Source: a virus
Lineage: Duplodnaviria; Caudoviricetes
Direction: 5' to 3' (one strand)
DNA: 30,257 nt
Virus record (IMG/VR): IMGVR_UViG_3300036398_000221
Span: 1 to 30,257 of that record
In this document: positions 5,906 to 18,394 of the stretch, piece after piece
Layout: each line of letters starts with the position of its first letter
Numbering within the stretch: position 1 is the first letter of the stretch
Made by a program: the position numbers and the translations under genes
Notes under the pieces: generated by a model
Databases searched by the model: none
The model's input: only the letters and a program-made list of their open reading frames with translations
Told to the model about the DNA's origin: nothing

Positions 5906-6616
5906 ATGGCTACAACAATATACAGAAGTGCTATTATTCATTTATTTGATGGCACAGAATTAGAGATTATCCCATTAAAGATTAAGTATCTTCGTGAGTT
6001 CATGGATGCTTTTGAAAAGGTAAAAGATACAAGTGGGGATCAAGAGGCAATAGAAAAACTTGTAGAATGTGTAAGAATTTGCATGAAGCAGTATTACCCA
6101 AGAATATCTAGTTCCACTGAAGATATAGAAGACAATGTTGACATGCAGACAATCTATACTATTTTAGATATTGCTGCAGGAATAAGAATTAATAAGCAAT
6201 CTAAAGAAACAGTTAAAAACCAAGTAGAAGAAAGTGGCGATACCTGGGATACTTTAGATTTAGCAAAGTTAGAGTCTGAGGTTTTTTTGCTGGGAATTTG
6301 GAAAGACTACCAAGAGTTAGAAAAATCTTTGTCAATGGCAGAACTGATGGCAACACTAGAAAGCAGCAGAGAACTTGACTATAATGAAAAAAAGTTTTTG
6401 GCTGCCATTCAGGGGGTTGATTTAGATAGTGAATCTGGCAGCAGTAAAGGCCAGAAAGAATGGGAAGACATGAAAGCCAGAGTATTTAGTGGCGGGGCAA
6501 CTTCTGATGCAAATGATGTTCTTGCTTTACAGGGTCAGAATGCACAAAAAGCAGGGTTTGGAATTGGGATGGGTCTTGACTATGAAGACGGTAGAGACCC
6601 CTCTCTTATGCTATAA
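5906..6616 (+). CDS. Tail assembly chaperone, long form (G-T fusion equivalent)
   Basis: Between major tail and TMP. The N-terminal ~100 aa are paralogous to the 6643 protein, followed by a T-like segment ('LLGIWKDYQELEKSLSMAELMATL'). Confidence 0.75.
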   Translation: MATTIYRSAIIHLFDGTELEIIPLKIKYLREFMDAFEKVKDTSGDQEAIEKLVECVRICMKQYYPRISSSTEDIEDNVDMQTIYTILDIAAGIRINKQSKETVKNQVEESGDTWDTLDLAKLESEVFLLGIWKDYQELEKSLSMAELMATLESSRELDYNEKKFLAAIQGVDLDSESGSSKGQKEWEDMKARVFSGGATSDANDVLALQGQNAQKAGFGIGMGLDYEDGRDPSLML

Positions 6617-6642: not shown

Positions 6643-6975
6643 ATGGCAACAACAGTACATGAGGGTGAAGAACTTATTCTTATGGATGGCTCAAAGATCA
6701 AGGTTCGTCCCTTGAAGATTTCTTTGCTACGTCCATTTATGAGTAAGTTTGAACAGGTGGCAGCGGTGGCAGAAGATAACGAAAAGTCTATGACTCTTCT
6801 TATTGAATGCGTACAAATTGCTATGCAGCAGTATAAGCCAGAACTTGCAAAAGATCTGAATGCTTTAGAGGAGATCATGGATCTTCCAACAGTCTATAAG
6901 GTAATTGAGGCGGCTTCGGGCGTCAAACTTACTGATGCAAATTCTTTGCTGAACACAGTTCTTGCAAACAATTAA
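6643..6975 (+). CDS. Tail assembly chaperone, short form (gpG equivalent)
   Basis: 110 aa directly before the TMP, with strong SD. Shares MATT, DG, PLKI, ECV, M.QY.P and 'D..T.Y.....A.G' with the N-terminus of the 5906 protein. Confidence 0.78.
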   Translation: MATTVHEGEELILMDGSKIKVRPLKISLLRPFMSKFEQVAAVAEDNEKSMTLLIECVQIAMQQYKPELAKDLNALEEIMDLPTVYKVIEAASGVKLTDANSLLNTVLANN

Positions 6976-6992: not shown

Positions 6993-9900
6993 ATGAGTGA
7001 TGTTAATGCCAATATTGGCGTACATATTGATACGTCGTCCGCATTAGCAGAACTCAAAAATCTACAACGTCAACTTGCAAATTTCCACGCATCAATAGCA
7101 AAAACTAGTGCCGCAGCAACAATGGCACAAAAGGGATTGCAAAACAATCTCCTGAATTCTATCAATGCTACGGGGCAGTTTTCTGCCACGATGGGCACTG
7201 TTAGATCATCTACGGAGTCGTTTACTCACGCATTAGAGTCTAATAAACTTTCAATGCGTGAGTATTTCCGTTATGCTGGAGGGTCATCAAAAACCTTTGG
7301 AAGACTGTTCAGACAAGAGTTTGACACAATTGGCAAGGTAGCAGAAGATCGTGTCAAGAAGATGCAGACTCAATATATTAAGATGGGTCGTGACGCTAGC
7401 GGTGCTATAAAGGCTATGGCAATTACGCCACAAACCTTGAACATGAACGACTATGCCACAAAGACAGCATTAGCAGCACAAAAACAAGCACTTTTTAATC
7501 AGGTAGTTAGACAAGGATCAACTAGCCTTTTAAACTTTGGTAAGAATACACAATGGGCTGGCCGCCAACTTATGGTTGGTTTTACAATTCCGCTTGCTTA
7601 CTTTGGCACAACTGCTTCTAAGGTATTTATGGATCTTGAAGCGCAGGCTATCAAGTTTAAGCGTGTTTATGGCGATATGTTTACAACTGCCGATGAAACA
7701 AACAAAGCATTAGCAGAAGTTGAAAAATTAGCAGAAGGTTTTACTAAGTATGGAGTTGCAGTAAGTAAGACTATGGAAATGGCAGCAGCGGCTGCGGCAA
7801 TGGGTAAAACTGGTGCAGACCTCACAGCGCAGGTATCTGAAGCAACCAGACTTGCAGTCCTTGGTGGCGTTGAACAAGAGCAGGCGCTTGAAACTACAAT
7901 TTCTCTTACAAATGCTTTTGGTATAGCAGCAGAAGATCTTGCATCAAAAATTAACTTCCTTAACTCTGTAGAAAACCAAACAGTTGTATCTATTGAAGAT
8001 CTGACAATTGCAATTCCAAAAGCAGGACCAGTTGTTCAACAACTTGGCGGAGATGTAGAAGATTTAGCATTCTTCCTTACAGCAATGAAGGAGGGTGGAA
8101 TTAATGCATCAGAAGGCGCTAACGCACTTAAGTCTGGTCTTGCGTCATTAATTAACCCAAGCACAAAAGCAAGTAAAATGCTTGCAGAACTTGGTATAAA
8201 TATTAAGGCGATAGTTGAAGGAAATGATGGTAATGTCAGACAAACTGTAATTGATTTTTCAAAAGCACTTGACACACTTGACCCCCTTAATCGTGCTCGT
8301 GCAATTGAACAATTATTTGGTAAGTTCCAGTTTTCTCGTTTGTCAACACTGTTTCAAAATGTAACCAAAGAAGGAACACAGGCAAGTAAAGTTTTAAAGA
8401 TGGCTGGCGCTTCAATAGAAGAACTTGCAATTTTATCTGAACGAGAATTAAAAACAGTAGAAAACTCTGTTGGTGTACAGTTTAAATCAGCGGTAGAAGA
8501 ACTTAAATTGGCAATTGCCCCAATTGGAAAGACCTTCCTTGAAGCAGTAACTCCAATCATTAAAACCATTGGAGGCCTTCTTGATAAGTTTAATAACCTT
8601 GGAGATGGAACAAAGAAGTTTATTGTAATTGCTTCTACCCTTGTTGGCATTATTGGTCCAACACTTTTGATGACCTTTGGTTTGCTTGCTAACGGTGTAG
8701 CAAACATCATTAAACTATTTCTTGCTCTTCGTGGAGGATTTTTAAGATTAGGCGGAAATAGTAAGATTCTTGCAGAGCAAACTAACTATTTGAATGCAGA
8801 ACAGTTAGAATCAGCAACAGTTGCCGCATCTCTTAATCAGGCACACACAAGACTTACACAATCATTTACTGCAGAAACTTCTGCTGTAAGAGCACTCAGA
8901 CAGGCATACATAGAAGCAACATTAGCCGCAGCAAATTTTGCTAGAGCAAACCCAGGAATGATGATGCCAGGAGGCGCCAAGGTCCCTAAGAAGTTTTCAA
9001 GAGGAGCAACCTATGTTCCAGGAACAGGAAACAAAGACACAGTTCCATCTATGCTTACTCCTGGAGAAGCAGTAATACCAAAACGAGTTGCACAAGACCC
9101 TAGGTTCCAGCCAATAATTGATGCAATGGTTAACGGCAATCTTCAAGGGTTTTCAGAAGGATCAGTCAGTGTAGGATCAAAGTCATTTAAAACAAGTAGT
9201 CAAAAAACTGCAAGAGATCTTGAAAAGACAATTGCTGAACTGATATCTAAGGGAATTCCTGAAGAAAAAATTGTTCGTGCATTAGAAAGAAATATTGAGC
9301 GTGGCCGCCCAATGAATGCCTCACAATTAAAGAGAAGACTTTCTATTGGTAGAGGTTCTTCATCTGGATCATCTGCTCCTTCATCAATAAGAACACTTGC
9401 AAAGCAGTCCCAATCTGGGTTCCTTCAAGAAACAGAAGCGGTAAAGAAAGCATTAAAGGAACAAGGCGTAGTATTAACTCCTGCACAAGAAAAGAATTTG
9501 TTTAATGTTCAAGCGTCCCACATTGATGAAGCACGAACTGGTGGAGTAAAAGAGTGGAAGGCCAATAATCTTGTTGCTGATTTAGGATATGTAAATAACT
9601 ACATCAACACAGTAAAGGGTAAACTTGGAACAGATTTACTTAAGATGACTGATGCTAGATTACAAGAACTTGGCATTGACAGAAAAGAACTTCAAAAACT
9701 TCAGGCTGGAACACACCCAACTACAGCGGACGCAGCAAAAACATTAAGAGCAGTTGCACAATACGACTCAATTCGTAATCCAGCATCCTATCAGGCAAAA
9801 GCAGTTGTTGCTGGGCTAGAGCATAGATCTAGAACTGGTTTTTATGCACAACCAATGAAGACATTGGCAGAGACTCAACCAGTTTCAAGCAGGGCAGAAA

Positions 9901-12900
9901 GAGCAATAAAGTCTAGAGTAGACTTAATAGAGCAAGAAAAAAATGCAAGAGCAGGTAACGACTCTCAGCAGATAATGAAACAAATAGATAGAGACATAAG
10001 AAGAAGCGCATTAGGAAAACAATCTCCAACAAACTTTGGAACTCAAATATCTCCAACAACTGGGCATAGTTTTCCAGTTAAAGGTTTGGGTGGCGTTTAT
10101 CAAAAGCCAGACGGAACCCTAGCATTTGTTAAGCCAGTTATTGATGCAAAAGCGGCATTGGCTGAACAAAGAGCAACAATTATTGCAAGAGATGTACATG
10201 GTCTAGATGCGCCTGAACAGCAAATTAGAACTATGCTTGACCCAACAGATCCAACAGGAAAAAGAAAACTTATTGTACTAGAGTCTCCTTTTGATCCTAG
10301 GTTTGATCCAAGTAAGATGACTGGCAAATTTACAAAAGATCAATACTTTAGACAACTCGTTGCTGCAAACCTGCGTGGAGACAAAGACTTAGGAAGAGGA
10401 AATCTTTCAGGAAATGTGCTTGCAGATGTTGGAACTGCAGGAGTTTTTGAAAAGGCTTCAGGAAAAAGAGATTTTGCTAAAACTATGCCTTCTATGGCAG
10501 AGCAAGCAAAGATTAATCTTCTTGGAGTAAAGGGCGGAGCAAAAAGATTCTTTGCCGAATCAACACTTGATATTCCTAGAGGAATGACTGCAGACGAATA
10601 CCACAGTAGAATGATAAAAGAAATTGACAAGGTTCTTCCAAAACTAAGGGATACTCTTTCAAGGCTTGATCTAACACCTGCAGAAAAAACTGTCTACTCT
10701 GGAATGGTAGCAAGACTTGAAGAAGGAAGAAAAGTTAACTGGAGAGAATTCCACAAGATGCATTCTTCTGCTCTTGTAACTAAAAAAGAAGCACTCCAGG
10801 ATAAAAAGACTGGTGATATAACAGCGATTAAAGGCAAGCCAAAACCTAAAAGGGCTGTATCAAGTTCTGGCAAAATATCTGACAGCGTAATTACTCAAAT
10901 TCCTCCAGGTAAAACAGTTGTTCAAAAACCAAAGGGATTTATTAGTTCTCGTATTGCAGGTAAGTTTATGCTTCCAGGCTATGCGAAAGCCCCTACTGCA
11001 GCAGGTGCAACCATTGGAGATATTTCTCAATCACAAAGACTGTCAAGGGCACAAATTCTTGCTGCTACAGAAAAAATAAGTTTAAACCAGGCCAAAAAGA
11101 AAATTGCAGCAGAGGCAAAACTAATTGCTGCTATGAAAGAAACAACAGAAGCACAAAAAACAACAAAAGAAAAACTAACAAACTTTAGTAACAAGGCAAA
11201 TCTTGGTATGGGTGCAATGAGTGGTTTGACAATTGCAGCATCCTTTGCTGGTGGAAGACTTGGAGAAGTGGCTAACACACTTATGCCATTTGTATTTGGT
11301 CTTCAGGGTATTGTATTGTTGTTGCCTCTATTGGCTAATCCTTGGGTTGCCGCAATCGCTGCCATCGCAGCGGTAGGTGGAATGATGTGGAAACTGGCTC
11401 GTGATGTTGAAAATGCGAGAAAAGAAGGAGTTAATCTTGCTAAGGCAATGAGTATGACTTCTGAAAAACTACAAAGTCTTTCATCCATAACTGGGACAGT
11501 AAGTGCTACGGAAGCAGCAGACAGAAAACGACAAAATACATTAACTGGTGAAAGTGCAGTTCAAAGAAAAGTTGGTCAAAATATTCTTGGTAGTGATTTT
11601 GGTAAAGGTCTTTTGGCTGATATTGAAAAACAAGCAAAGTCTGGACAAGGAATTCAAGAAATTGGTAGAAATATATCTACCAGTCTTTCTTATGCAATTA
11701 TTCAAGGAGTAATAACAACAGACCAAGCAAAAAGTATTGCTTCTGCACTTGGAGAAGAACTAAAGAGTTATGAAATACCAGCAGTTATTAGCGGTAGATT
11801 AGTTAAACTTTTTGGACCTAATGGTGAAAACCTAGCAACAGATCCTCTTAAGATTACTCTTGAAATTCAAGAAGAGTCAATGACTAGACAGGCTGACTTC
11901 TTTAAGACTGCGCTTGAACAATCAGTTAGCACAATAACATTTACAAACTTAGGAAATGTTGTCACGGGCGGCGTTATGGCAGCCATAGGTGGAACCATGG
12001 CAGTAGCAGGCGTTCCAGCCTTTGCTGCAGGCGGAGTACCAGGTGTTGGGCTTATGGCATCAGGAACTGCTCTAACGGCGGCAGGTACAGCAAAGGTAGC
12101 ATCTGGATTTTCAGATCAAAATCAACGTAGAGAAGTAAATGCAAACCTTGGTGCCGCAGCCCTACAACTTGGTTTAGAGCAAGTAGTTCTAAACAATGGG
12201 CTAGTTGACTCATTAAATAAACAGTATGAAATTAAACTTAAGATGGCTCAAACAGATGCCGAAATTAAAAAAATTGAAGATGAAAGAGCAGCAGCAATAG
12301 ATGCACTTAATGCAAAAAATACAGAAGCGCTAAATCTTCTTATTTCTCAAAAAGATGCTTTTGGCCCAGAAATATTTACTAAGGGTATAAATGCAGCAAT
12401 AGATGCACTTTATCCAACAGGACCTCTTAAGGTTTTTGCTGATGAAGCAAAGAAAGAACTAGAAGGAATTAAAGATGCAGACTTTAAGGCACTGCTACAG
12501 GTTCAATTTGCTGGTGGTGCACTTGACCCAGTAACCATAATGAAACTTGCCAACAACCAAGAACTACAAAGTAAATTTACAGTTATGGTTGAACAGCAGG
12601 GTAGTGAGCAGGCAAACCTAGTAATGCAACTACTTATGAAGGCTGGAACAGACGAAACTAACCTTCCAATCTTTATGGACATTTTAAATAAAGATAAAAA
12701 GAATTTTGATAAAAACCTTGATGCTATTTCAGTTCTCGCTAACATGCAACAAAAATATGGAATAACAATTGATGTTAATGATGACGGCGTAACACAGATT
12801 AAAGAAGTTGTTGCAGTAACCGACAAACTAAAAGGAATAAAAAATGAAGAACTTTCTAAAGAGGCATTCTTTGATCTTGGAATAACTGGAGATATGACAG

Positions 12901-15900
12901 GACCAGACTTTGATAAACTCTGGACCACTCTTGTCGGAACAGCAAATACAATTAACAAAAAGGTAGTAATTGACTTTGTTGCTTCTCAGGACAAGAATGT
13001 CGTAGATCAGTATATGGCTGCTATGGGAATTACTGCTCCAAAGGGCAGGCTTGGAGCAATGCTTCGTAAATCACTTGAGCCAAAAGCAGCAGCATGGAAT
13101 ACTGGAAGACAGGGTAAGGTTACTGTAGATCCCGATCCGACTGAAGAGACGGATGTAACAACAACAGGAAGAAACACAGTATTTGATAGTATACTTCAAG
13201 ATCTTAAAAACACTAGAAATGCAACTATTAATGCCATGGGTGGTGCTAAAGAATTAATGCGTATTCTTGGCGGTAAAAAAGATATACAGTTATTTAATGG
13301 AATAGATCAACAACTATCTAAGTTGGGGGCTAACTCTGATTTTATAGACTTTGTTGGTGGGCTAGAAAATGCTGTTAAAGAAAAAATTATTAAGATTAAC
13401 AAGCAGGGAGTTGTTTCATACGGAGAATTTGGTGAGGCAGCCAAGAAGGCATTTGATGAAAAACAACTTGGAGCGTTTAGTTCTAAGTCAGCAATAGCAA
13501 TAAAAGAATTACAAGGGCAGCGTTCAGGGTTTGTGGCACTAAGGGCTGCTGGAGTTGAGACCGCAGATGCCGTTGAAATGGTTGCAGATGCCACGTTCAT
13601 GGTTTCTCTTGCTGCTCAAAAAAATCCTGAAGAAATTAAAAGAATGACCGATGAGTGGAAGATAATGAAGAGAGAGATGGATCTTACCACCGCCGCAACA
13701 AATCCACAAGAATATTTCAATGACCAGATGGCTATTGCAGAAAGACAACTTAGTCATCAAGAAGAGATGGCAAGAAGAACTTACGAACCACAAATTGAGG
13801 CTACAGAGAAATTAGTTAAAGCAAACAACATCCTTATTGAGCAGGCACAGCGTAAACTTGAACTAGATGCTACATATGGTAGCCGACAAATTGACAAGAT
13901 TAATGCTGAGATTGATGCATTAAACAGACAGATTGCCACAGGGATAGATGCGACAATTCAAGCACTTTCAGAAGAGTCAGCCAAACTCTCTGAAGACCAA
14001 GCAACCATTGCTAAAACAGTTGATGCTATTAATGAAAAATATGATTTACAAGAAGAAGCACTTTCAAAAATATCAGATCTAAATAAAGATATTATTGATG
14101 AAAAGAAAACTCAGATATCTCTTGCTGATGCATTAACACGAGGAGATATTTCAGCAGCAGCCCAGGCTGCAGAAGATATGAGGTCCGCTTCTGCAAGTCG
14201 AGCACTTAGTTCTGCCTCAGATGCAATTTCTTCAGCAAGAGGGTTTGAGGTTGACGCAGTTACTGGATCTATAACTGGAAAAAATTCATCTGCTATTACA
14301 GAAAGACAATATCAGATTGATCGTGAAACATATAGACTTGGAGTAGAACGTGCCAAGACAGAAGCATTAATTGCAGCAAAACAAGAAGAAATCTATAAGA
14401 TTGACTTGTTGCGTAAACCAATTCTTGCAGAAATTACAAGACTTGAAGATCTTAATTATAATTATCTAAACAATGAAATTCCTTTATTAAGAAGTAAGTT
14501 AGACCAAGAACTTTCAGCAATTGATGCTCAACGTGAAAAGTGGACAACTGCACAACTTGCTATTGATTCTGCTAATTTAAGCACCGAAACATTTAAGGGC
14601 AAACTTGAAAAAGCAGAAAGTTTTGTAGACTCTATAGCAAAACTATGGGGAAAGATTACAGACAAAGATGTTAAAATAACAATTCAAACAATTGAAGAAG
14701 TTATTAAGCAACAGGCATCATTCGTAAAAGCAGGAACTGTAACAACACAAAGTGGAGCAGTCATAGCAGTAGATGCTAACGGAAGAGCAGCAGATGGATC
14801 TGTTCCTATATCGAAGTCTTCTGAAACTTCAGGAACAACGCTAGTTCCTGTTCCTAATTTTACTCCATACCTAGATCCACCAAAGAACACACTAAGCCCA
14901 GGAGATAAAGGCTTTGTTGGTCCCGTTGCACCAGAACCACCTATTGTAACTCCAAAGGCAACAACAAACTCCGCAAGAAGGCTTATGCCATTAGAAAGGC
15001 TGGCTCTTGCTAAGGGTGGAATGGTTCCTAACAATTTTATTGCTGGAGAATATGCCCAGGGAACAGATACAGTTCCAGCAATGCTTACTCCAGGAGAATA
15101 TGTACTAAGAAGAGATGCAGTAAAGAAGTATGGAGTTAAGCAACTTGATGCAATGAATGTTGGATATTATGACAAGGGTGGAGAAGTATCTAAGTTTGCA
15201 TCAAGACCAAAATATGGAATAAAATCTAATCCTGAAGAAAAAGGTATAGGTAGTTTCTTTAAAAAGAGTGACCGAGATAAATGGACCGCAGAATCTAAGT
15301 ACAATAGTTTTCTGTCTACACACGCTAGAAAACTGGCAGAACGAGATAAACGAATACAAGAAATGCTTAACAAGTCTCCTCTTACGTCTTGGATGGGCGC
15401 AGAAGGTCTTGGTACTTCTGGTTTACTTAAGTCCATGACTGGACAGGGAACTAAGTCTGACAAAGTTATGGCTGCACTATTCCCACTAAATTTCATGGGT
15501 ATGGGAAAATTTACTAAAGAAGGATCAAAAGCAATAAAACCAGTATCTTCTGGAGTTGAAGAGTTGGGTTCAAAGATTTTGAAAGACAACTTAGTAACTA
15601 AAATATCATCAATGCTTCCAAAAATAAGTGCTCCTGCTGGCAAATTTATGGGCACACTAAAGAAAATAATTAATTTACCACAAACCAGAAGAGCAGAAAT
15701 AATAGCAGCAGAAGCAGCAGAAGCAAGAAAAACCGCAGAGGCTGTAGAGTTTCTTAAAAATAATCCACCAGCATCAAGGCCTACTGGTCCTGGTGCGCCA
15801 CCATCACTATGGGATGGGGTAGACGATAGTTCTGGCATGCCTGATGATTTTTGGACTTCTATAGATGATGCTCCTGTTGATCCTAATAGTTTTTTCATGC

Positions 15901-17768
15901 AAAACGCTTTACAGCAAAAACCCCCAAGTGCTTTAAGAAAAACTTTAGGTAAAATTGGTTCTACTGTTGCTAAGCCTGTAACCGTTCCAGCAAAACTTTT
16001 AGCAAGAGCCGCCAAGATAGGTAAAAATTCTTGGGACGTAGGACAATCCAGTTTTAGATGGGCTGGAGATTTTGACTATTACGGCAGAACTACGCTGATG
16101 AGAGAAATTGCTAGTAGAACAATTGGAAAACTTGCAGAAAAGGTTAATCCAAAGGTAACAATGGGCTTAAAATTTGACCAATTTCACGCAGGGAAAGCCA
16201 AATCAATTTTAGATCTGATTTCTCCATTGCAAACATACATGAGGCCACTAGACGATACAACTATTGGTCTAAGATTTGGGCTTAAATATAGAAATATCCC
16301 GAAAAATATTTTAGAAAAAAACATAAAGCCTCCAGTAATGAAAGCATTAAGTTCTGCTACTGAACTAAAAAATTCAGTAAAAAATAAATTTACCACAATA
16401 AAAGACAAAATTACTCCAGATATATTGTCAACAGATAATCGTTTATTTAATTATCTTTATTCTAGTACTCCTGTTGGTGGATTGATCGCAAGAGGAGCAG
16501 CAGCAAGACTAGGTTTCAAAAAAACAGAAAAGGTTAATAAATCAGGCCTAGAACTTTCAATGGAAAAACTTTTAGAACAGGCTTTCTATCATGGAGGAAA
16601 TCTTCCAGGTAAAATAAAAAATAGATTCCCAGTTCCTAATCCCATGGATAACAGCAACTACGTTCCAGCAAATAGAACTTCAAATTGGTTTGCACATGAT
16701 TTTTTTGCAACAGTGGGCATTCCTCAAGCACAACAATATGCAATAACAAAAAATGCTGAGGGGATGGCAGAAGGAGCCTCTGATATATTTAGAACATTTT
16801 TTAATCTAGATAAATCAAAAACTTGGGATATGAGACCAGGATTCAAATCCCTGTATTCTCAAAATCCAGAGGCATACAGATTACTTGAGTCATACATAGC
16901 AAAAACAAGAGGCATTAAGGCTGCAAGGGAATTTTTACTGGGAGAGCGTGTTGCTGGAACAGCAATGGGTAAAATGGAAGGATTCGGTGGTACACCGTTT
17001 GAAAGAGGAACTCAAGGAGCAACACCTTTTACTGGTCTTAATCTTGGTGATGTTTTGGCTAAGACAGTTGATGGTGTACCGACAAGAGTTATAGATAGTA
17101 TAATTCATAAAGGTGGAATTGGTAATTGGGGACTTCCAGAAAACCCACACACAGTTATTGCAACTATGAATCCAAAAACAGTTACACAAAATTTAACAAA
17201 ACTTTTTCCAAGAGAACTTGTTGCCTCAACAATAGGTGCGCCAGAAGAAATGATACCAAGCATAATGGAAAGAATGCTAGATCAGGTTGCCAAAACAGGT
17301 AAAGCAACTCCACTTCTTGCTCAAGGACACGTGGGAAGAAGAGTAATATCAGGGCCTACAGATAGAATAGCCATGGCAAGTGGTGGACTAGTTCCAAGAT
17401 ATTTGTCTAATGGTGGATACGCAGTGGGAACAGATACCGTACCCGCAATGCTAACTCCTGGGGAGTTTGTTATAAACAGAATAGCAACCAAGAAGTTTGG
17501 TCCAATGCTTAATGACATTAATAATCTTCAGTATCCGTCCATGATGCAGGATCTAAGCCCTGCAACATATAAAAATACCAGATCTTCAACTGTTGTCCCT
17601 GCTGTTAATACCATGTCCACAAGTGTAAGCGACAACTCCAGAACCATGTATAATTATGGTATCAGCGTTAATGTTTCTAACTCTAATGCAAGCACAGATG
17701 ATATTGCAAGAGCAGTTATTACTCAAATTAGAAACATTGATGGTCAAAGAATTAGAGGGCAGAGATAA
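6993..17768 (+). CDS. Tail tape measure protein (3591 aa) with inserted enzymatic cargo domains (kinase-like, HNH-like, ADP-ribosyltransferase-like)
   Basis: Follows the chaperones. N-terminal TP901-type TMP core ('AFFLTAMKEGGINASEGANALKSGLASL'), Ala-rich helical and coiled-coil regions, hydrophobic segments near 8619-8730, 11200-11395 and 11950-12110, and a typical C-terminal 'YGISVNVS...DDIARAVITQI'. SD GAGGTG. Confidence 0.93.
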   Translation: MSDVNANIGVHIDTSSALAELKNLQRQLANFHASIAKTSAAATMAQKGLQNNLLNSINATGQFSATMGTVRSSTESFTHALESNKLSMREYFRYAGGSSKTFGRLFRQEFDTIGKVAEDRVKKMQTQYIKMGRDASGAIKAMAITPQTLNMNDYATKTALAAQKQALFNQVVRQGSTSLLNFGKNTQWAGRQLMVGFTIPLAYFGTTASKVFMDLEAQAIKFKRVYGDMFTTADETNKALAEVEKLAEGFTKYGVAVSKTMEMAAAAAAMGKTGADLTAQVSEATRLAVLGGVEQEQALETTISLTNAFGIAAEDLASKINFLNSVENQTVVSIEDLTIAIPKAGPVVQQLGGDVEDLAFFLTAMKEGGINASEGANALKSGLASLINPSTKASKMLAELGINIKAIVEGNDGNVRQTVIDFSKALDTLDPLNRARAIEQLFGKFQFSRLSTLFQNVTKEGTQASKVLKMAGASIEELAILSERELKTVENSVGVQFKSAVEELKLAIAPIGKTFLEAVTPIIKTIGGLLDKFNNLGDGTKKFIVIASTLVGIIGPTLLMTFGLLANGVANIIKLFLALRGGFLRLGGNSKILAEQTNYLNAEQLESATVAASLNQAHTRLTQSFTAETSAVRALRQAYIEATLAAANFARANPGMMMPGGAKVPKKFSRGATYVPGTGNKDTVPSMLTPGEAVIPKRVAQDPRFQPIIDAMVNGNLQGFSEGSVSVGSKSFKTSSQKTARDLEKTIAELISKGIPEEKIVRALERNIERGRPMNASQLKRRLSIGRGSSSGSSAPSSIRTLAKQSQSGFLQETEAVKKALKEQGVVLTPAQEKNLFNVQASHIDEARTGGVKEWKANNLVADLGYVNNYINTVKGKLGTDLLKMTDARLQELGIDRKELQKLQAGTHPTTADAAKTLRAVAQYDSIRNPASYQAKAVVAGLEHRSRTGFYAQPMKTLAETQPVSSRAERAIKSRVDLIEQEKNARAGNDSQQIMKQIDRDIRRSALGKQSPTNFGTQISPTTGHSFPVKGLGGVYQKPDGTLAFVKPVIDAKAALAEQRATIIARDVHGLDAPEQQIRTMLDPTDPTGKRKLIVLESPFDPRFDPSKMTGKFTKDQYFRQLVAANLRGDKDLGRGNLSGNVLADVGTAGVFEKASGKRDFAKTMPSMAEQAKINLLGVKGGAKRFFAESTLDIPRGMTADEYHSRMIKEIDKVLPKLRDTLSRLDLTPAEKTVYSGMVARLEEGRKVNWREFHKMHSSALVTKKEALQDKKTGDITAIKGKPKPKRAVSSSGKISDSVITQIPPGKTVVQKPKGFISSRIAGKFMLPGYAKAPTAAGATIGDISQSQRLSRAQILAATEKISLNQAKKKIAAEAKLIAAMKETTEAQKTTKEKLTNFSNKANLGMGAMSGLTIAASFAGGRLGEVANTLMPFVFGLQGIVLLLPLLANPWVAAIAAIAAVGGMMWKLARDVENARKEGVNLAKAMSMTSEKLQSLSSITGTVSATEAADRKRQNTLTGESAVQRKVGQNILGSDFGKGLLADIEKQAKSGQGIQEIGRNISTSLSYAIIQGVITTDQAKSIASALGEELKSYEIPAVISGRLVKLFGPNGENLATDPLKITLEIQEESMTRQADFFKTALEQSVSTITFTNLGNVVTGGVMAAIGGTMAVAGVPAFAAGGVPGVGLMASGTALTAAGTAKVASGFSDQNQRREVNANLGAAALQLGLEQVVLNNGLVDSLNKQYEIKLKMAQTDAEIKKIEDERAAAIDALNAKNTEALNLLISQKDAFGPEIFTKGINAAIDALYPTGPLKVFADEAKKELEGIKDADFKALLQVQFAGGALDPVTIMKLANNQELQSKFTVMVEQQGSEQANLVMQLLMKAGTDETNLPIFMDILNKDKKNFDKNLDAISVLANMQQKYGITIDVNDDGVTQIKEVVAVTDKLKGIKNEELSKEAFFDLGITGDMTGPDFDKLWTTLVGTANTINKKVVIDFVASQDKNVVDQYMAAMGITAPKGRLGAMLRKSLEPKAAAWNTGRQGKVTVDPDPTEETDVTTTGRNTVFDSILQDLKNTRNATINAMGGAKELMRILGGKKDIQLFNGIDQQLSKLGANSDFIDFVGGLENAVKEKIIKINKQGVVSYGEFGEAAKKAFDEKQLGAFSSKSAIAIKELQGQRSGFVALRAAGVETADAVEMVADATFMVSLAAQKNPEEIKRMTDEWKIMKREMDLTTAATNPQEYFNDQMAIAERQLSHQEEMARRTYEPQIEATEKLVKANNILIEQAQRKLELDATYGSRQIDKINAEIDALNRQIATGIDATIQALSEESAKLSEDQATIAKTVDAINEKYDLQEEALSKISDLNKDIIDEKKTQISLADALTRGDISAAAQAAEDMRSASASRALSSASDAISSARGFEVDAVTGSITGKNSSAITERQYQIDRETYRLGVERAKTEALIAAKQEEIYKIDLLRKPILAEITRLEDLNYNYLNNEIPLLRSKLDQELSAIDAQREKWTTAQLAIDSANLSTETFKGKLEKAESFVDSIAKLWGKITDKDVKITIQTIEEVIKQQASFVKAGTVTTQSGAVIAVDANGRAADGSVPISKSSETSGTTLVPVPNFTPYLDPPKNTLSPGDKGFVGPVAPEPPIVTPKATTNSARRLMPLERLALAKGGMVPNNFIAGEYAQGTDTVPAMLTPGEYVLRRDAVKKYGVKQLDAMNVGYYDKGGEVSKFASRPKYGIKSNPEEKGIGSFFKKSDRDKWTAESKYNSFLSTHARKLAERDKRIQEMLNKSPLTSWMGAEGLGTSGLLKSMTGQGTKSDKVMAALFPLNFMGMGKFTKEGSKAIKPVSSGVEELGSKILKDNLVTKISSMLPKISAPAGKFMGTLKKIINLPQTRRAEIIAAEAAEARKTAEAVEFLKNNPPASRPTGPGAPPSLWDGVDDSSGMPDDFWTSIDDAPVDPNSFFMQNALQQKPPSALRKTLGKIGSTVAKPVTVPAKLLARAAKIGKNSWDVGQSSFRWAGDFDYYGRTTLMREIASRTIGKLAEKVNPKVTMGLKFDQFHAGKAKSILDLISPLQTYMRPLDDTTIGLRFGLKYRNIPKNILEKNIKPPVMKALSSATELKNSVKNKFTTIKDKITPDILSTDNRLFNYLYSSTPVGGLIARGAAARLGFKKTEKVNKSGLELSMEKLLEQAFYHGGNLPGKIKNRFPVPNPMDNSNYVPANRTSNWFAHDFFATVGIPQAQQYAITKNAEGMAEGASDIFRTFFNLDKSKTWDMRPGFKSLYSQNPEAYRLLESYIAKTRGIKAAREFLLGERVAGTAMGKMEGFGGTPFERGTQGATPFTGLNLGDVLAKTVDGVPTRVIDSIIHKGGIGNWGLPENPHTVIATMNPKTVTQNLTKLFPRELVASTIGAPEEMIPSIMERMLDQVAKTGKATPLLAQGHVGRRVISGPTDRIAMASGGLVPRYLSNGGYAVGTDTVPAMLTPGEFVINRIATKKFGPMLNDINNLQYPSMMQDLSPATYKNTRSSTVVPAVNTMSTSVSDNSRTMYNYGISVNVSNSNASTDDIARAVITQIRNIDGQRIRGQR
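9036..9068 (+). repeat. TMP internal module copy 1 (DTVPSMLTPGE)
   Basis: GACACAGTTCCATCTATGCTTACTCCTGGAGAA, 29/33 nt identical to copy 2. Confidence 0.9.
15066..15098 (+). repeat. TMP internal module copy 2 (DTVPAMLTPGE)
   Basis: GATACAGTTCCAGCAATGCTTACTCCAGGAGAA. Peptide identical to copy 3. Confidence 0.9.
17433..17465 (+). repeat. TMP internal module copy 3 (DTVPAMLTPGE)
   Basis: GATACCGTACCCGCAATGCTAACTCCTGGGGAG. Same peptide as copy 2 with synonymous divergence. Confidence 0.9.
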
Positions 17769-18394
17769 TGGCTACATCATCATACATGAACCAAAGAAAG
17801 AGATACCAAAGACCACAAGGAATTTTATGGTCAGAAAATTCTGGAACACTAACAAATGGATTTTATGTACCTCAAGGCTATGAAGTTGGTGGGGCATATC
17901 CAGAAGGAACATCTTCAGACTTAATTGATCAATTTTTGGTGTTGTCAGATCACAATAGAAATGACATGTCCTTTAGTCCGCAAAGAATTGAGCAGCGTCA
18001 AAGAACCATTAATGGAAGAATGAGATCTTATCACATTGCAGATAAATTACAGATATCTGTTTCTTGGAATAACTTGCCATCAAGATCACATAATGCAAAT
18101 CCAAACTTTTCCGATGAAGATGGAGCAGCATCTGCTGCAGAGTATACTGCTGATGGCGGCGCAGGTGGTGGCGAACTACTTGACTGGTACGAAAACCACA
18201 AGGGTCCATTCTGGATGTTTTTAGCATACGATAAATATAAAAATTTTGAAACAAGTGAAAATCAATATGCACATCTTTCACAGTATAACCAGATACTTCA
18301 GGTTTATGTTTCTGATTTTAGTTATACAGTTGTAAAGCGTGGCGGAACAAACCATGATCTTTGGAACATAAATGTAAGTCTAGAAGAGGTTTAA
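17768..18394 (+). CDS. Distal tail protein (Dit-like)
   Basis: Immediately after the TMP with TAATG coupling. About 200 aa, with 'RTINGRMRSYHIADKLQISVSWNNL' and terminal 'WNINVSLEEV', as in Dit/lambda gpM-like proteins. Confidence 0.72.
   Translation: MATSSYMNQRKRYQRPQGILWSENSGTLTNGFYVPQGYEVGGAYPEGTSSDLIDQFLVLSDHNRNDMSFSPQRIEQRQRTINGRMRSYHIADKLQISVSWNNLPSRSHNANPNFSDEDGAASAAEYTADGGAGGGELLDWYENHKGPFWMFLAYDKYKNFETSENQYAHLSQYNQILQVYVSDFSYTVVKRGGTNHDLWNINVSLEEV

Follow-up and report, generated by a model that had tools for sequence, protein, structure and literature searches.

The locus analysed here raises the question of whether a tape measure protein (TMP) can also serve as a carrier of enzymes into the host cell. 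The window (the whole stretch of DNA analysed, 30,257 nucleotides) belongs to an uncultured tailed phage, and the original prediction, made from its letters alone, was a TMP of 3591 aa with enzyme domains bracketed by copies of a repeated module marking processing or insertion sites.

Results

The TMP consists of a conserved backbone and two variable cassettes

The open reading frame at 6993-17768 (plus strand) has the predicted length of 3591 aa and matches the tape measure families PF10145 (E 1.8e-24, 87.2 bits against a cut-off of 33.2) and TIGR01760 (E 7.5e-31, 107.4 bits against a cut-off of 28.8); it lies between tail chaperone-like genes and distal-tail/hub-like genes and encodes hydrophobic segments. 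It is a siphophage TMP of the TP901 family. The window is a linear fragment (~28% complete according to CheckV) with the gene order protease, capsid, tail tube, chaperones, TMP and tail tip, followed by helicase and primase. The closest cultured TMPs are those of Streptomyces phages (~31% identity across the N-terminal 570-690 aa). WhiB was found in all five relatives with a completeness of 90% or more (101-122 kb), and 11 of the 36 records tested had it above cut-off; its presence in relatives therefore points to an actinobacterial host. An assembly artefact was rejected on the basis of a second contig, L081, which may share the same population and is 100% identical over aa 260-3591.

The TMP is composed of a conserved backbone and two variable cassettes (A and B), each headed by a repeated module of ~55 residues (Table 1). 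Cassette A sits between the two hydrophobic segments, and a helical backbone follows the second of these, up to ~aa 2560. The conserved strand and helix at the C-terminus is likely a tail-tip plug, a role transferred from T5, lambda, JBD30 and Douge. The gene directly after the TMP was distal-tail-like in 71/71 TMP-bearing loci (from the scan keeping the best 80 of 259 candidates), and neither an immunity gene nor an orphan cassette followed the TMP in these 71 loci.

The tail chaperones of the window are encoded as an in-frame G+T fusion (5906-6616) and then a separate G paralogue (6643-6975; 36% identity over 96 aa), an order present in 73 of the 76 loci with matches; in Streptomyces phage Tomas the G and T frames overlap. 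Gene duplication appears to have taken the place of the frameshift by which G/GT is usually made. A direct repeat of 38 nt (54-91 and 630-667, 82%) spans a ribosome-binding site and start, upstream of the capsid gene and within the preceding ORF, which suggests an internal scaffold start.

Table 1 Features of the TMP gene and its downstream neighbour in the window.
Feature	Position	Strand	Basis
TMP, 3591 aa	6993..17768	+	family matches and gene neighbourhood
PF10145 TMP domain, aa 252-443, within the conserved N-terminal 660 aa	7746..8321	+	profile match
Hydrophobic segment 1, aa 542-577, possible membrane span	8616..8723	+	hydropathy
Module 1, aa 664-724, conserved E692, predicted cut F668/S669	8982..9164	+	profile; cut inferred
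HNH-like (His-Me finger) insert, aa 801-960	9393..9872	+	motif level only
Atypical kinase (CotH/CtkA/HipA/PI4K class), aa 1007-1264	10011..10784	+	model, fold search, conservation
Probable decayed module closing cassette A, ends PGYAKA at 10974-10991	10845..10991	+	weak profile
Hydrophobic segment 2, aa 1426-1469, likely membrane spans	11268..11399	+	hydropathy
Module 2, aa 2672-2733, heads optional cassette B, conserved E2702	15006..15191	+	profile
Two mobile segments, b1 ~aa 2745-2840 and b2 ~aa 2941-3186	15225..16550	+	identity to P0003/P0004
Probable ADP-ribosyltransferase-fold insert (H-Y-x type), aa 3187-3445	16551..17327	+	motifs
Module 3, aa 3461-3520, conserved E3491, predicted cut M3461/A3462	17373..17552	+	profile; cut inferred
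Conserved C-terminal strand and helix	17640..17765	+	conservation
Next gene, distal-tail-like by position	17768..18394	+	abuts TMP, no immunity gene between

The repeated module is widespread in phage TMPs

The three modules were found where they had been predicted, with DTVP(S/A)MLTPGE cores beginning at aa 682, 2692 and 3481, and a profile built from relatives scored them at 88, 55 and 67 bits, respectively; the cores are also visible in the DNA as a 43-nt repeat with 70-81% identity to copy 1. One or more [FYLM]-[AS]-x-G-G-like words open the module, the core D-T-V-P-x-M-L-T-P-G-E-x-V follows, and a second [FYLM]-[AS]-x-G-G-like word usually closes it; module 1 begins with F-S-R-G-A. An alignment of 97 copies shows two invariant Gly and at least 90% conservation of D, P, L, P and E. 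The PGYAKA sequence lies at its predicted position, and the stretch upstream of it is probably a decayed fourth module, so that its role as a closing variant stands as probable only: the profile match is weak (P 0.034) and the conserved Glu is absent in the window, with some relatives retaining P-G-E-T-V-V in this slot and others holding a full module. The proposed kinship with the C-terminal segment of lambda gpH was borne out, gpH 733-785 matching a broad module profile at 21.7 bits (best of 300 shuffles, 1.2 bits); PF09718, which may or may not cover this stretch of gpH, had no match in the window.

The module profile gave 32,582 matches among 1.84 billion representatives (E <=0.001). The best 150 of these proteins, a set biased towards many copies, have 2146-7872 aa and 3-10 modules, the copies rising to about ten in TMPs of ~7,800 residues. 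Twelve multi-module proteins were scanned against Pfam: PF10145 was present in 11, the sole other match being a weak EF-hand in one. The module also occurs in the TMPs of cultured phages from many hosts (83 records), including two copies (966-1013 and 1412-1461) in the TMP of mycobacteriophage Douge (gp16, PDB 8zdo) and one weak match each in JBD30 (1019-1056, E 0.035) and 8vjh (E 0.56). In large Synechococcus phages (H49-H51, H72, H80) the module is found in proteins whose annotation is lysozyme, hypothetical or transmembrane. P0152 has six modules in tandem (aa 3212-3540) and L077 two (13037-13372), none of them separated by cargo.

Cassette A carries a kinase fold and an HNH-like insert

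The original prediction placed HNH-like and kinase-like domains after copy 1. The kinase was upheld by its fold: the predicted model (pLDDT 91.8, pTM 0.90) confirmed a two-lobed atypical kinase with a full set of catalytic residues, its best Foldseek match being CtkA (E 3e-4) and its VIA-align matches including CotH (Z 12.1, rmsd 4.1 over 217 residues), MavQ (Z 10.8), PI4K2A (10.3) and CtkA (9.9). The structure check proposed with the prediction thus identified at least one insert as a true enzyme fold; this fold class takes in lipid kinases, and the substrate (protein, lipid or small molecule) is not readable from the fold. Residues K1047, E1058, D1132, N1137 and D1145 are invariant in 35/35 sequences sharing 32-86% identity; the full active site is kept, and the kinase is therefore likely under selection for activity. 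No named Pfam kinase family matched the window fragment or 86 cassettes.

The HNH label stands at the level of a motif. In the insert at aa 801-960, H843 is invariant in 31/31 sequences and N868 and N872 are at least 90% conserved, within the pattern S-H...W...D-x-G...N-x-Y-x-N, which we presume to be that of an HNH/His-Me finger. No PF13391, other family, PDB or named Atlas match was obtained for this insert, which by its motif is quite probably an HNH-like nuclease.

Searches of the window fragments against Pfam, NCBIfam and PHROGs returned no enzyme family, and the window TMP had no wall-hydrolase or Hint/intein family match. PDB sequence searches with kinase, HNH and ADP-ribosyltransferase (ART) profiles gave nothing meaningful, and the kinase, HNH-like and ART-like inserts of the window had no match among 50,697 GenBank phage records. 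Among the 86 cassette-A regions compared with Pfam, only the nucleotidyltransferase family PF01467 was above cut-off, in three (L033, L036, L049), where it forms the first cargo directly after module 1.

Cassette B is mobile and contains an ART-like insert

Copies 2 and 3 had been predicted to enclose a variable region with an ART-like domain. The variability was confirmed: cassette B of the window (b1, b2 and the ART-like insert) is absent from the 76 complete relatives described below and from every other one of the 122 TMP sequences (from the best 80 of 588 and the best 80 of 259 loci), and in close relatives the backbone continues straight to the last module. Pieces of the cassette are present in five distant proteins, with identities uncoupled from the backbone: b1 shows 96% identity to a stretch of P0003, and b2 shows 35-40% identity in P0003 and P0004, which have b2 in common and a different ART-like domain after it. 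Neither b1 nor b2 had a family match in profile searches of the window fragments.

The ART label is again at motif level. H3200, Y3249, D3368 and H3386 are common to 3/3 aligned sequences (33-56% identity), which share the motifs F-Y-H-G-G, F-x-T, Y, I-D and H-x-V; PF18760 (ART-PolyVal) is present in two of the three best-scoring Atlas clusters, with a score of 0.82, under the 0.9 lead threshold. PF18760 itself was found in 0/1 window and 0/48 related records (the first pass yielded no candidates), the model of the insert plus module reached a pLDDT of 42 from a 13-row alignment (10 of 63 C-terminal rows kept), and no profile link to other ART-like cargos was detected. Judged by these motifs, the insert is quite probably an ADP-ribosyltransferase. 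The VIP2-like and ART-like labels of the relatives' cargos, which we presume from motifs, stay at that level because PF03496 and PF18760 are both absent in the 48 related records.

Inserts are gained, lost and reordered among relatives

The 160 loci compared come from two scans (the best 80 of 588 and the best 80 of 259 candidates) and yielded 154 TMP-matching sequences including that of the window, 122 without duplicates and contained fragments, and 76 complete. Among the 76 complete relatives, which are related sequences and thus not independent, two modules were present in 65, three in nine and four in two; six carried kinase and HNH, 18 kinase only, 17 HNH only and 35 neither, with TMP lengths of 1956-3225 aa. 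Two modules are the ground state, and gain or loss of the kinase insert is independent of that of the HNH-like insert. The homologue comparison proposed with the original prediction accordingly showed polymorphic inter-module regions and a conserved N-terminal domain (86-91% identity over aa 170-640 across the five close relatives compared). In P0005 the identity is 42% in the N-domain against 63% in the kinase, in P0004 kinase and HNH are in reverse order, and in 14 of 21 other kinase-bearing library proteins the kinase is the sole recognised domain between two modules.

The suggestion that modules are insertion sites holds in part. Extra modules accompany inserts when relatives are compared; against this, the kinase (~aa 960-1260) is missing in L001, L004 and L113 with no module at its left edge, and this indel inside cassette A means that not every swap occurs at a module.

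Among the best 150 of the 32,582 module proteins, 112 have cargo from one or more of 13 recurrent families. The motifs of these families resemble those of PD-(D/E)xK nucleases, HAD phosphatases, GNATs, R-S-E and H-Y-x ARTs, zincins, a thermonuclease, P-loop kinases and nucleotidyltransferases; among these motif-level labels only nucleotidyltransferase is above a Pfam cut-off, and 21 cargo pieces gave sub-threshold hints only (HAD, AAA_33, SprT-like). Among the non-TMP ORFs of at least 300 aa in the 160 loci, none was a stand-alone relative of the kinase, HNH or ART inserts.

Several individual cases were also noted. In L135 (6723-9713) and L122 (6213-9713) modules 2 and 3 are separated by cassettes of 1000-1170 aa, that of L135 with GNAT-like and R-S-E ART-like motifs by eye and no Pfam support. 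L003 (15860-17089) has an HExxH zincin-like cargo between two modules, with a weak match to an N4-type virion RNA polymerase family (E 0.0023). P0005 contains an OmpA-family domain inside the TMP (aa 2711-2804, E 2e-17) and a second kinase-like segment near aa 3163. L009 and L018 encode the TMP in two separate ORFs, owing to either a frameshift or an assembly error.

Processing may occur at module starts

The signal [FYLMH][AS]xGG occurs 12.1 times per 1000 aa near modules, 0.53 times elsewhere and 0.22 times in shuffled sequences, a 23-fold enrichment at modules obtained from related, non-independent sequences. In the same kind of related set, a homology breakpoint is found no more than 10 aa away from 63% of 224 lone signals; the corresponding shares are 34% for random sites and 33% for 2763 other xxxGG control sites.

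Papers are cited here by PMC number and for parts of their text. Lambda gpH is cut after tail assembly with release of ~14 kDa, site and enzyme being unknown, and its reported products are ~78 and 14 kDa (PMC12617516). A hypothetical cut at F733/A734 would give calculated masses of 79.8 and 12.5 kDa; the end of gpH* has been placed near residue 710 (modelled at 691-730; PMC12617516), somewhat before residue 733. T5 pb2 is cut after R1127, as determined by MS (PMC10038345), and the sequence directly after this residue is A-E-G-G, then E-V-V-T-P. Residues 1128-1151 of pb2 had no positive score with either module profile, only the words A-x-G-G and E-x-V-x-P agreeing, and because of this the T5 link is one of a short motif only. 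The C-terminal pieces of lambda and T5 are present in particles (PMC12617516, PMC10038345). The TMP gp96 of P23-45 is full-size in virions (PMC10770324) and had no module by profile search; the comparison of cut and uncut proteins comprises n=3. In JBD30, a hook has been predicted at residues 1022-1066 and a cut site suggested downstream of it (PMC11445458), and this hook overlaps the module match at 1019-1056.

Processing at the module start is thus indirectly supported by a motif-level likeness to the T5 cut site. Cleavage at the internal modules, judged from the sequence, has slightly better than even chances; that the module cleaves itself is a tentative proposal, and equally doubtful is the broader idea that a self-cleaving x/A-x-G-G unit explains the maturation of lambda gpH and has been multiplied into a polymorphic TMP with injected cargo.

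Discussion

The TMP as a proposed magazine of enzymes

The comparisons above show a backbone with modules and inserts, which relatives have gained, lost and reordered independently of one another. We propose, at a probability of roughly 0.5, that the TMP is a magazine that would be cut at module starts and ejected into the host, so that a kinase is freed at infection, together with what are probably a nuclease and an ADP-ribosyltransferase. The inserts would very probably sit unfolded in the tail tube, as would the remaining TMP. The chain might then, with the balance tilting a little in favour, be cut at the x/A-x-G-G that opens each module and at comparable signals where modules end. The module itself may do the cutting, using its conserved Asp and Glu; this is conceivable because an unknown protease makes the lambda cut after tail assembly. 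Cuts at the main signals would give pieces of 71, 5.5, 67, 144, 5.9, 80 and 14 kDa, the 67 kDa piece comprising HNH and kinase, the 80 kDa piece cassette B and the last, after M3461/A3462, a C-terminal piece with a calculated mass of 14.0 kDa. In the models of T5 and JBD30 the C-terminal end of the TMP exits the tail first (PMC10038345, PMC11445458), and therefore cassette B would leave early and cassette A later. Whether freed or still tethered, the domains may, by a slight preference, refold in contact with the cytoplasm, which supplies ATP, NAD+ and nucleic acid; there they would modify proteins of host defence or transcription at an early stage. Module-plus-cargo units would move when co-infecting phages recombine at their modules.

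The strongest of the alternatives, which we regard as possible though on the doubtful side, is that the modules are small folding units or baseplate hooks and also recombination joints, the TMP being uncut internally or cut only at its last module and the enzymes acting while attached to the injection pore. The RNA polymerase of P23-45 is found in virions within full-size gp96 (PMC10770324) and the predicted JBD30 hook overlaps a module match (PMC11445458), both of which fit such tethering, as do the F-S-R-G-A of copy 1, the decay of the fourth copy and the fact that a cut at module 1 would part the N-terminal 668 aa from the remaining ruler; however, the T5 cut falls at the start of an A-x-G-G motif (PMC10038345), lone signals mark breakpoints even where the module core is missing, and the uncut gp96 has no modules. 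It is improbable that the cassettes are instead excised during tail assembly, to act late in the producing cell and be absent from the virion. Signals at both cassette ends would permit excision, the 700 extra residues would lengthen the tail if carried, and lambda gpH is cut in morphogenesis, with three of six C-terminal pieces possibly lost (PMC12617516), but that cut follows tail assembly and the C-terminal pieces of lambda and T5 are in particles (PMC12617516, PMC10038345); moreover, a late enzyme could be its own gene, and the 160 loci held no stand-alone relatives among non-TMP ORFs of at least 300 aa.

More improbable still is that the inserts act outside the host cytoplasm, either on the envelope, like TMP wall hydrolases, or as Trojan-horse toxins on grazing protists. 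T5 pb2C has been proposed to digest peptidoglycan (PMC10038345), the ARTs of freshwater phages have been read as anti-predator toxins (PMC6802176), P0005 has an OmpA-type domain and the kinase fold includes lipid kinases; yet kinases, ARTs and nucleotidyltransferases (PF01467, 3/86 cassettes) need cytoplasmic nucleotides, the window TMP has no wall-hydrolase family, and few copies per virion would fit a single bacterial cell better than a predator. Least credible, in our judgement, is a reading of the inserts as selfish or neutral passengers of a homing or intein-like kind, which the phage tolerates since its ruler can change in length: the HNH-like domain does adjoin a candidate self-cutting module and TMP length does vary in the 76 relatives (1956-3225 aa), but the kinase catalytic residues are invariant across 32-86% identity, no Hint/intein family matched, and the cargo types are many and mostly non-nuclease.

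Relation to known systems

The TMP of TM4 reportedly contains a peptidoglycan hydrolase motif, and the known cargo of this kind, TMP-borne wall hydrolases, acts on the envelope. Polymorphic toxin systems combine a conserved trafficking part with exchangeable enzyme domains and have a C-terminal toxin followed by an immunity gene, whereas the cargo of the window is internal. The window system is not a polymorphic toxin system, because no immunity gene follows the TMP (71/71 loci).

P23-45 gp96 is, like the window TMP, a giant (5002 aa), and provides a precedent for a TMP-fused enzyme active in the infected cell (PMC10770324); it differs in having one N-terminal virion RNA polymerase, conserved in relatives, in a full-size protein with no module, whereas the window TMP has several internal exchangeable domains fenced by repeats. 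Lambda gpH, processed to gpH* and gpHC, resembles it in one related module near the C-terminus, in or at the cut region (PMC12617516), and T5 pb2, processed to pb2* and pb2C, by a motif only, near the C-terminus at the cut (PMC10038345); both have a single copy, a single cut and no cytoplasmic-type cargo in the parts cited. Douge gp16 shares two module copies in a TMP, and neither repeats nor cleavage are discussed in the part of PMC13033339 consulted.

Polyvalent proteins, of phages and conjugative elements, are multidomain virion proteins built from shuffled enzyme domains (ART, kinase, GNAT, metallopeptidase and nuclease), for which injection and processing have been proposed (PMC5512222, PMC9503650). 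MuF, portal, N4-type RNAP or head proteins serve as their carriers in the published descriptions, and the main text of neither paper mentions a tape measure carrier; their processing is ascribed to zincin peptidases, and their kinase has no C-lobe, whereas that of the window is CotH/HipA-like. The window TMP has several shuffled enzymatic domains in one polypeptide, as polyvalent proteins do, most cargo labels being motif-level, and none of the named polyvalent domains (MPTase, LPD, ART-PolyVal, MuF carrier) was found in it. By its predicted domains it is a protein that would work like a polyvalent one with a TMP as carrier, and it lies outside the named-domain membership.

ARTs have been reported in 24 freshwater phages, with no TMP link in the part cited (PMC6802176), and PMC7824862, PMC12619734 and PMC10202952, as far as cited, have little bearing on TMP cargo. 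No description of a repeated module or of polymorphic TMP cargo was found in searches of open-access main texts. Enzyme-fused TMPs and TMP cleavage are known separately, and repeated modules with exchangeable cytoplasmic-type cargo were not met with in these searches.

Significance

Counter-defence proteins that enter by injection are mainly regarded as cargo of the head; one survey detected NAD-network proteins in only 16% of siphophages and related this low share to delivery (PMC9503650, in part). The analysis bears on the old question of where and how lambda gpH is cut, in a tractable phage: if the proposal is true, the predicted cut is F733/A734 and E755 would be required. The module would then have been multiplied to about ten copies in large lake-type siphophages, and kinases, ARTs, nucleases, acetyltransferases and phosphatases would be injected ahead of the DNA. 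The inserts are a pool of uncharacterised enzymes, and a TMP built as a modular magazine would be a general delivery route for long-tailed phages, concealed by the annotation 'tape measure protein' and undetected by Pfam.
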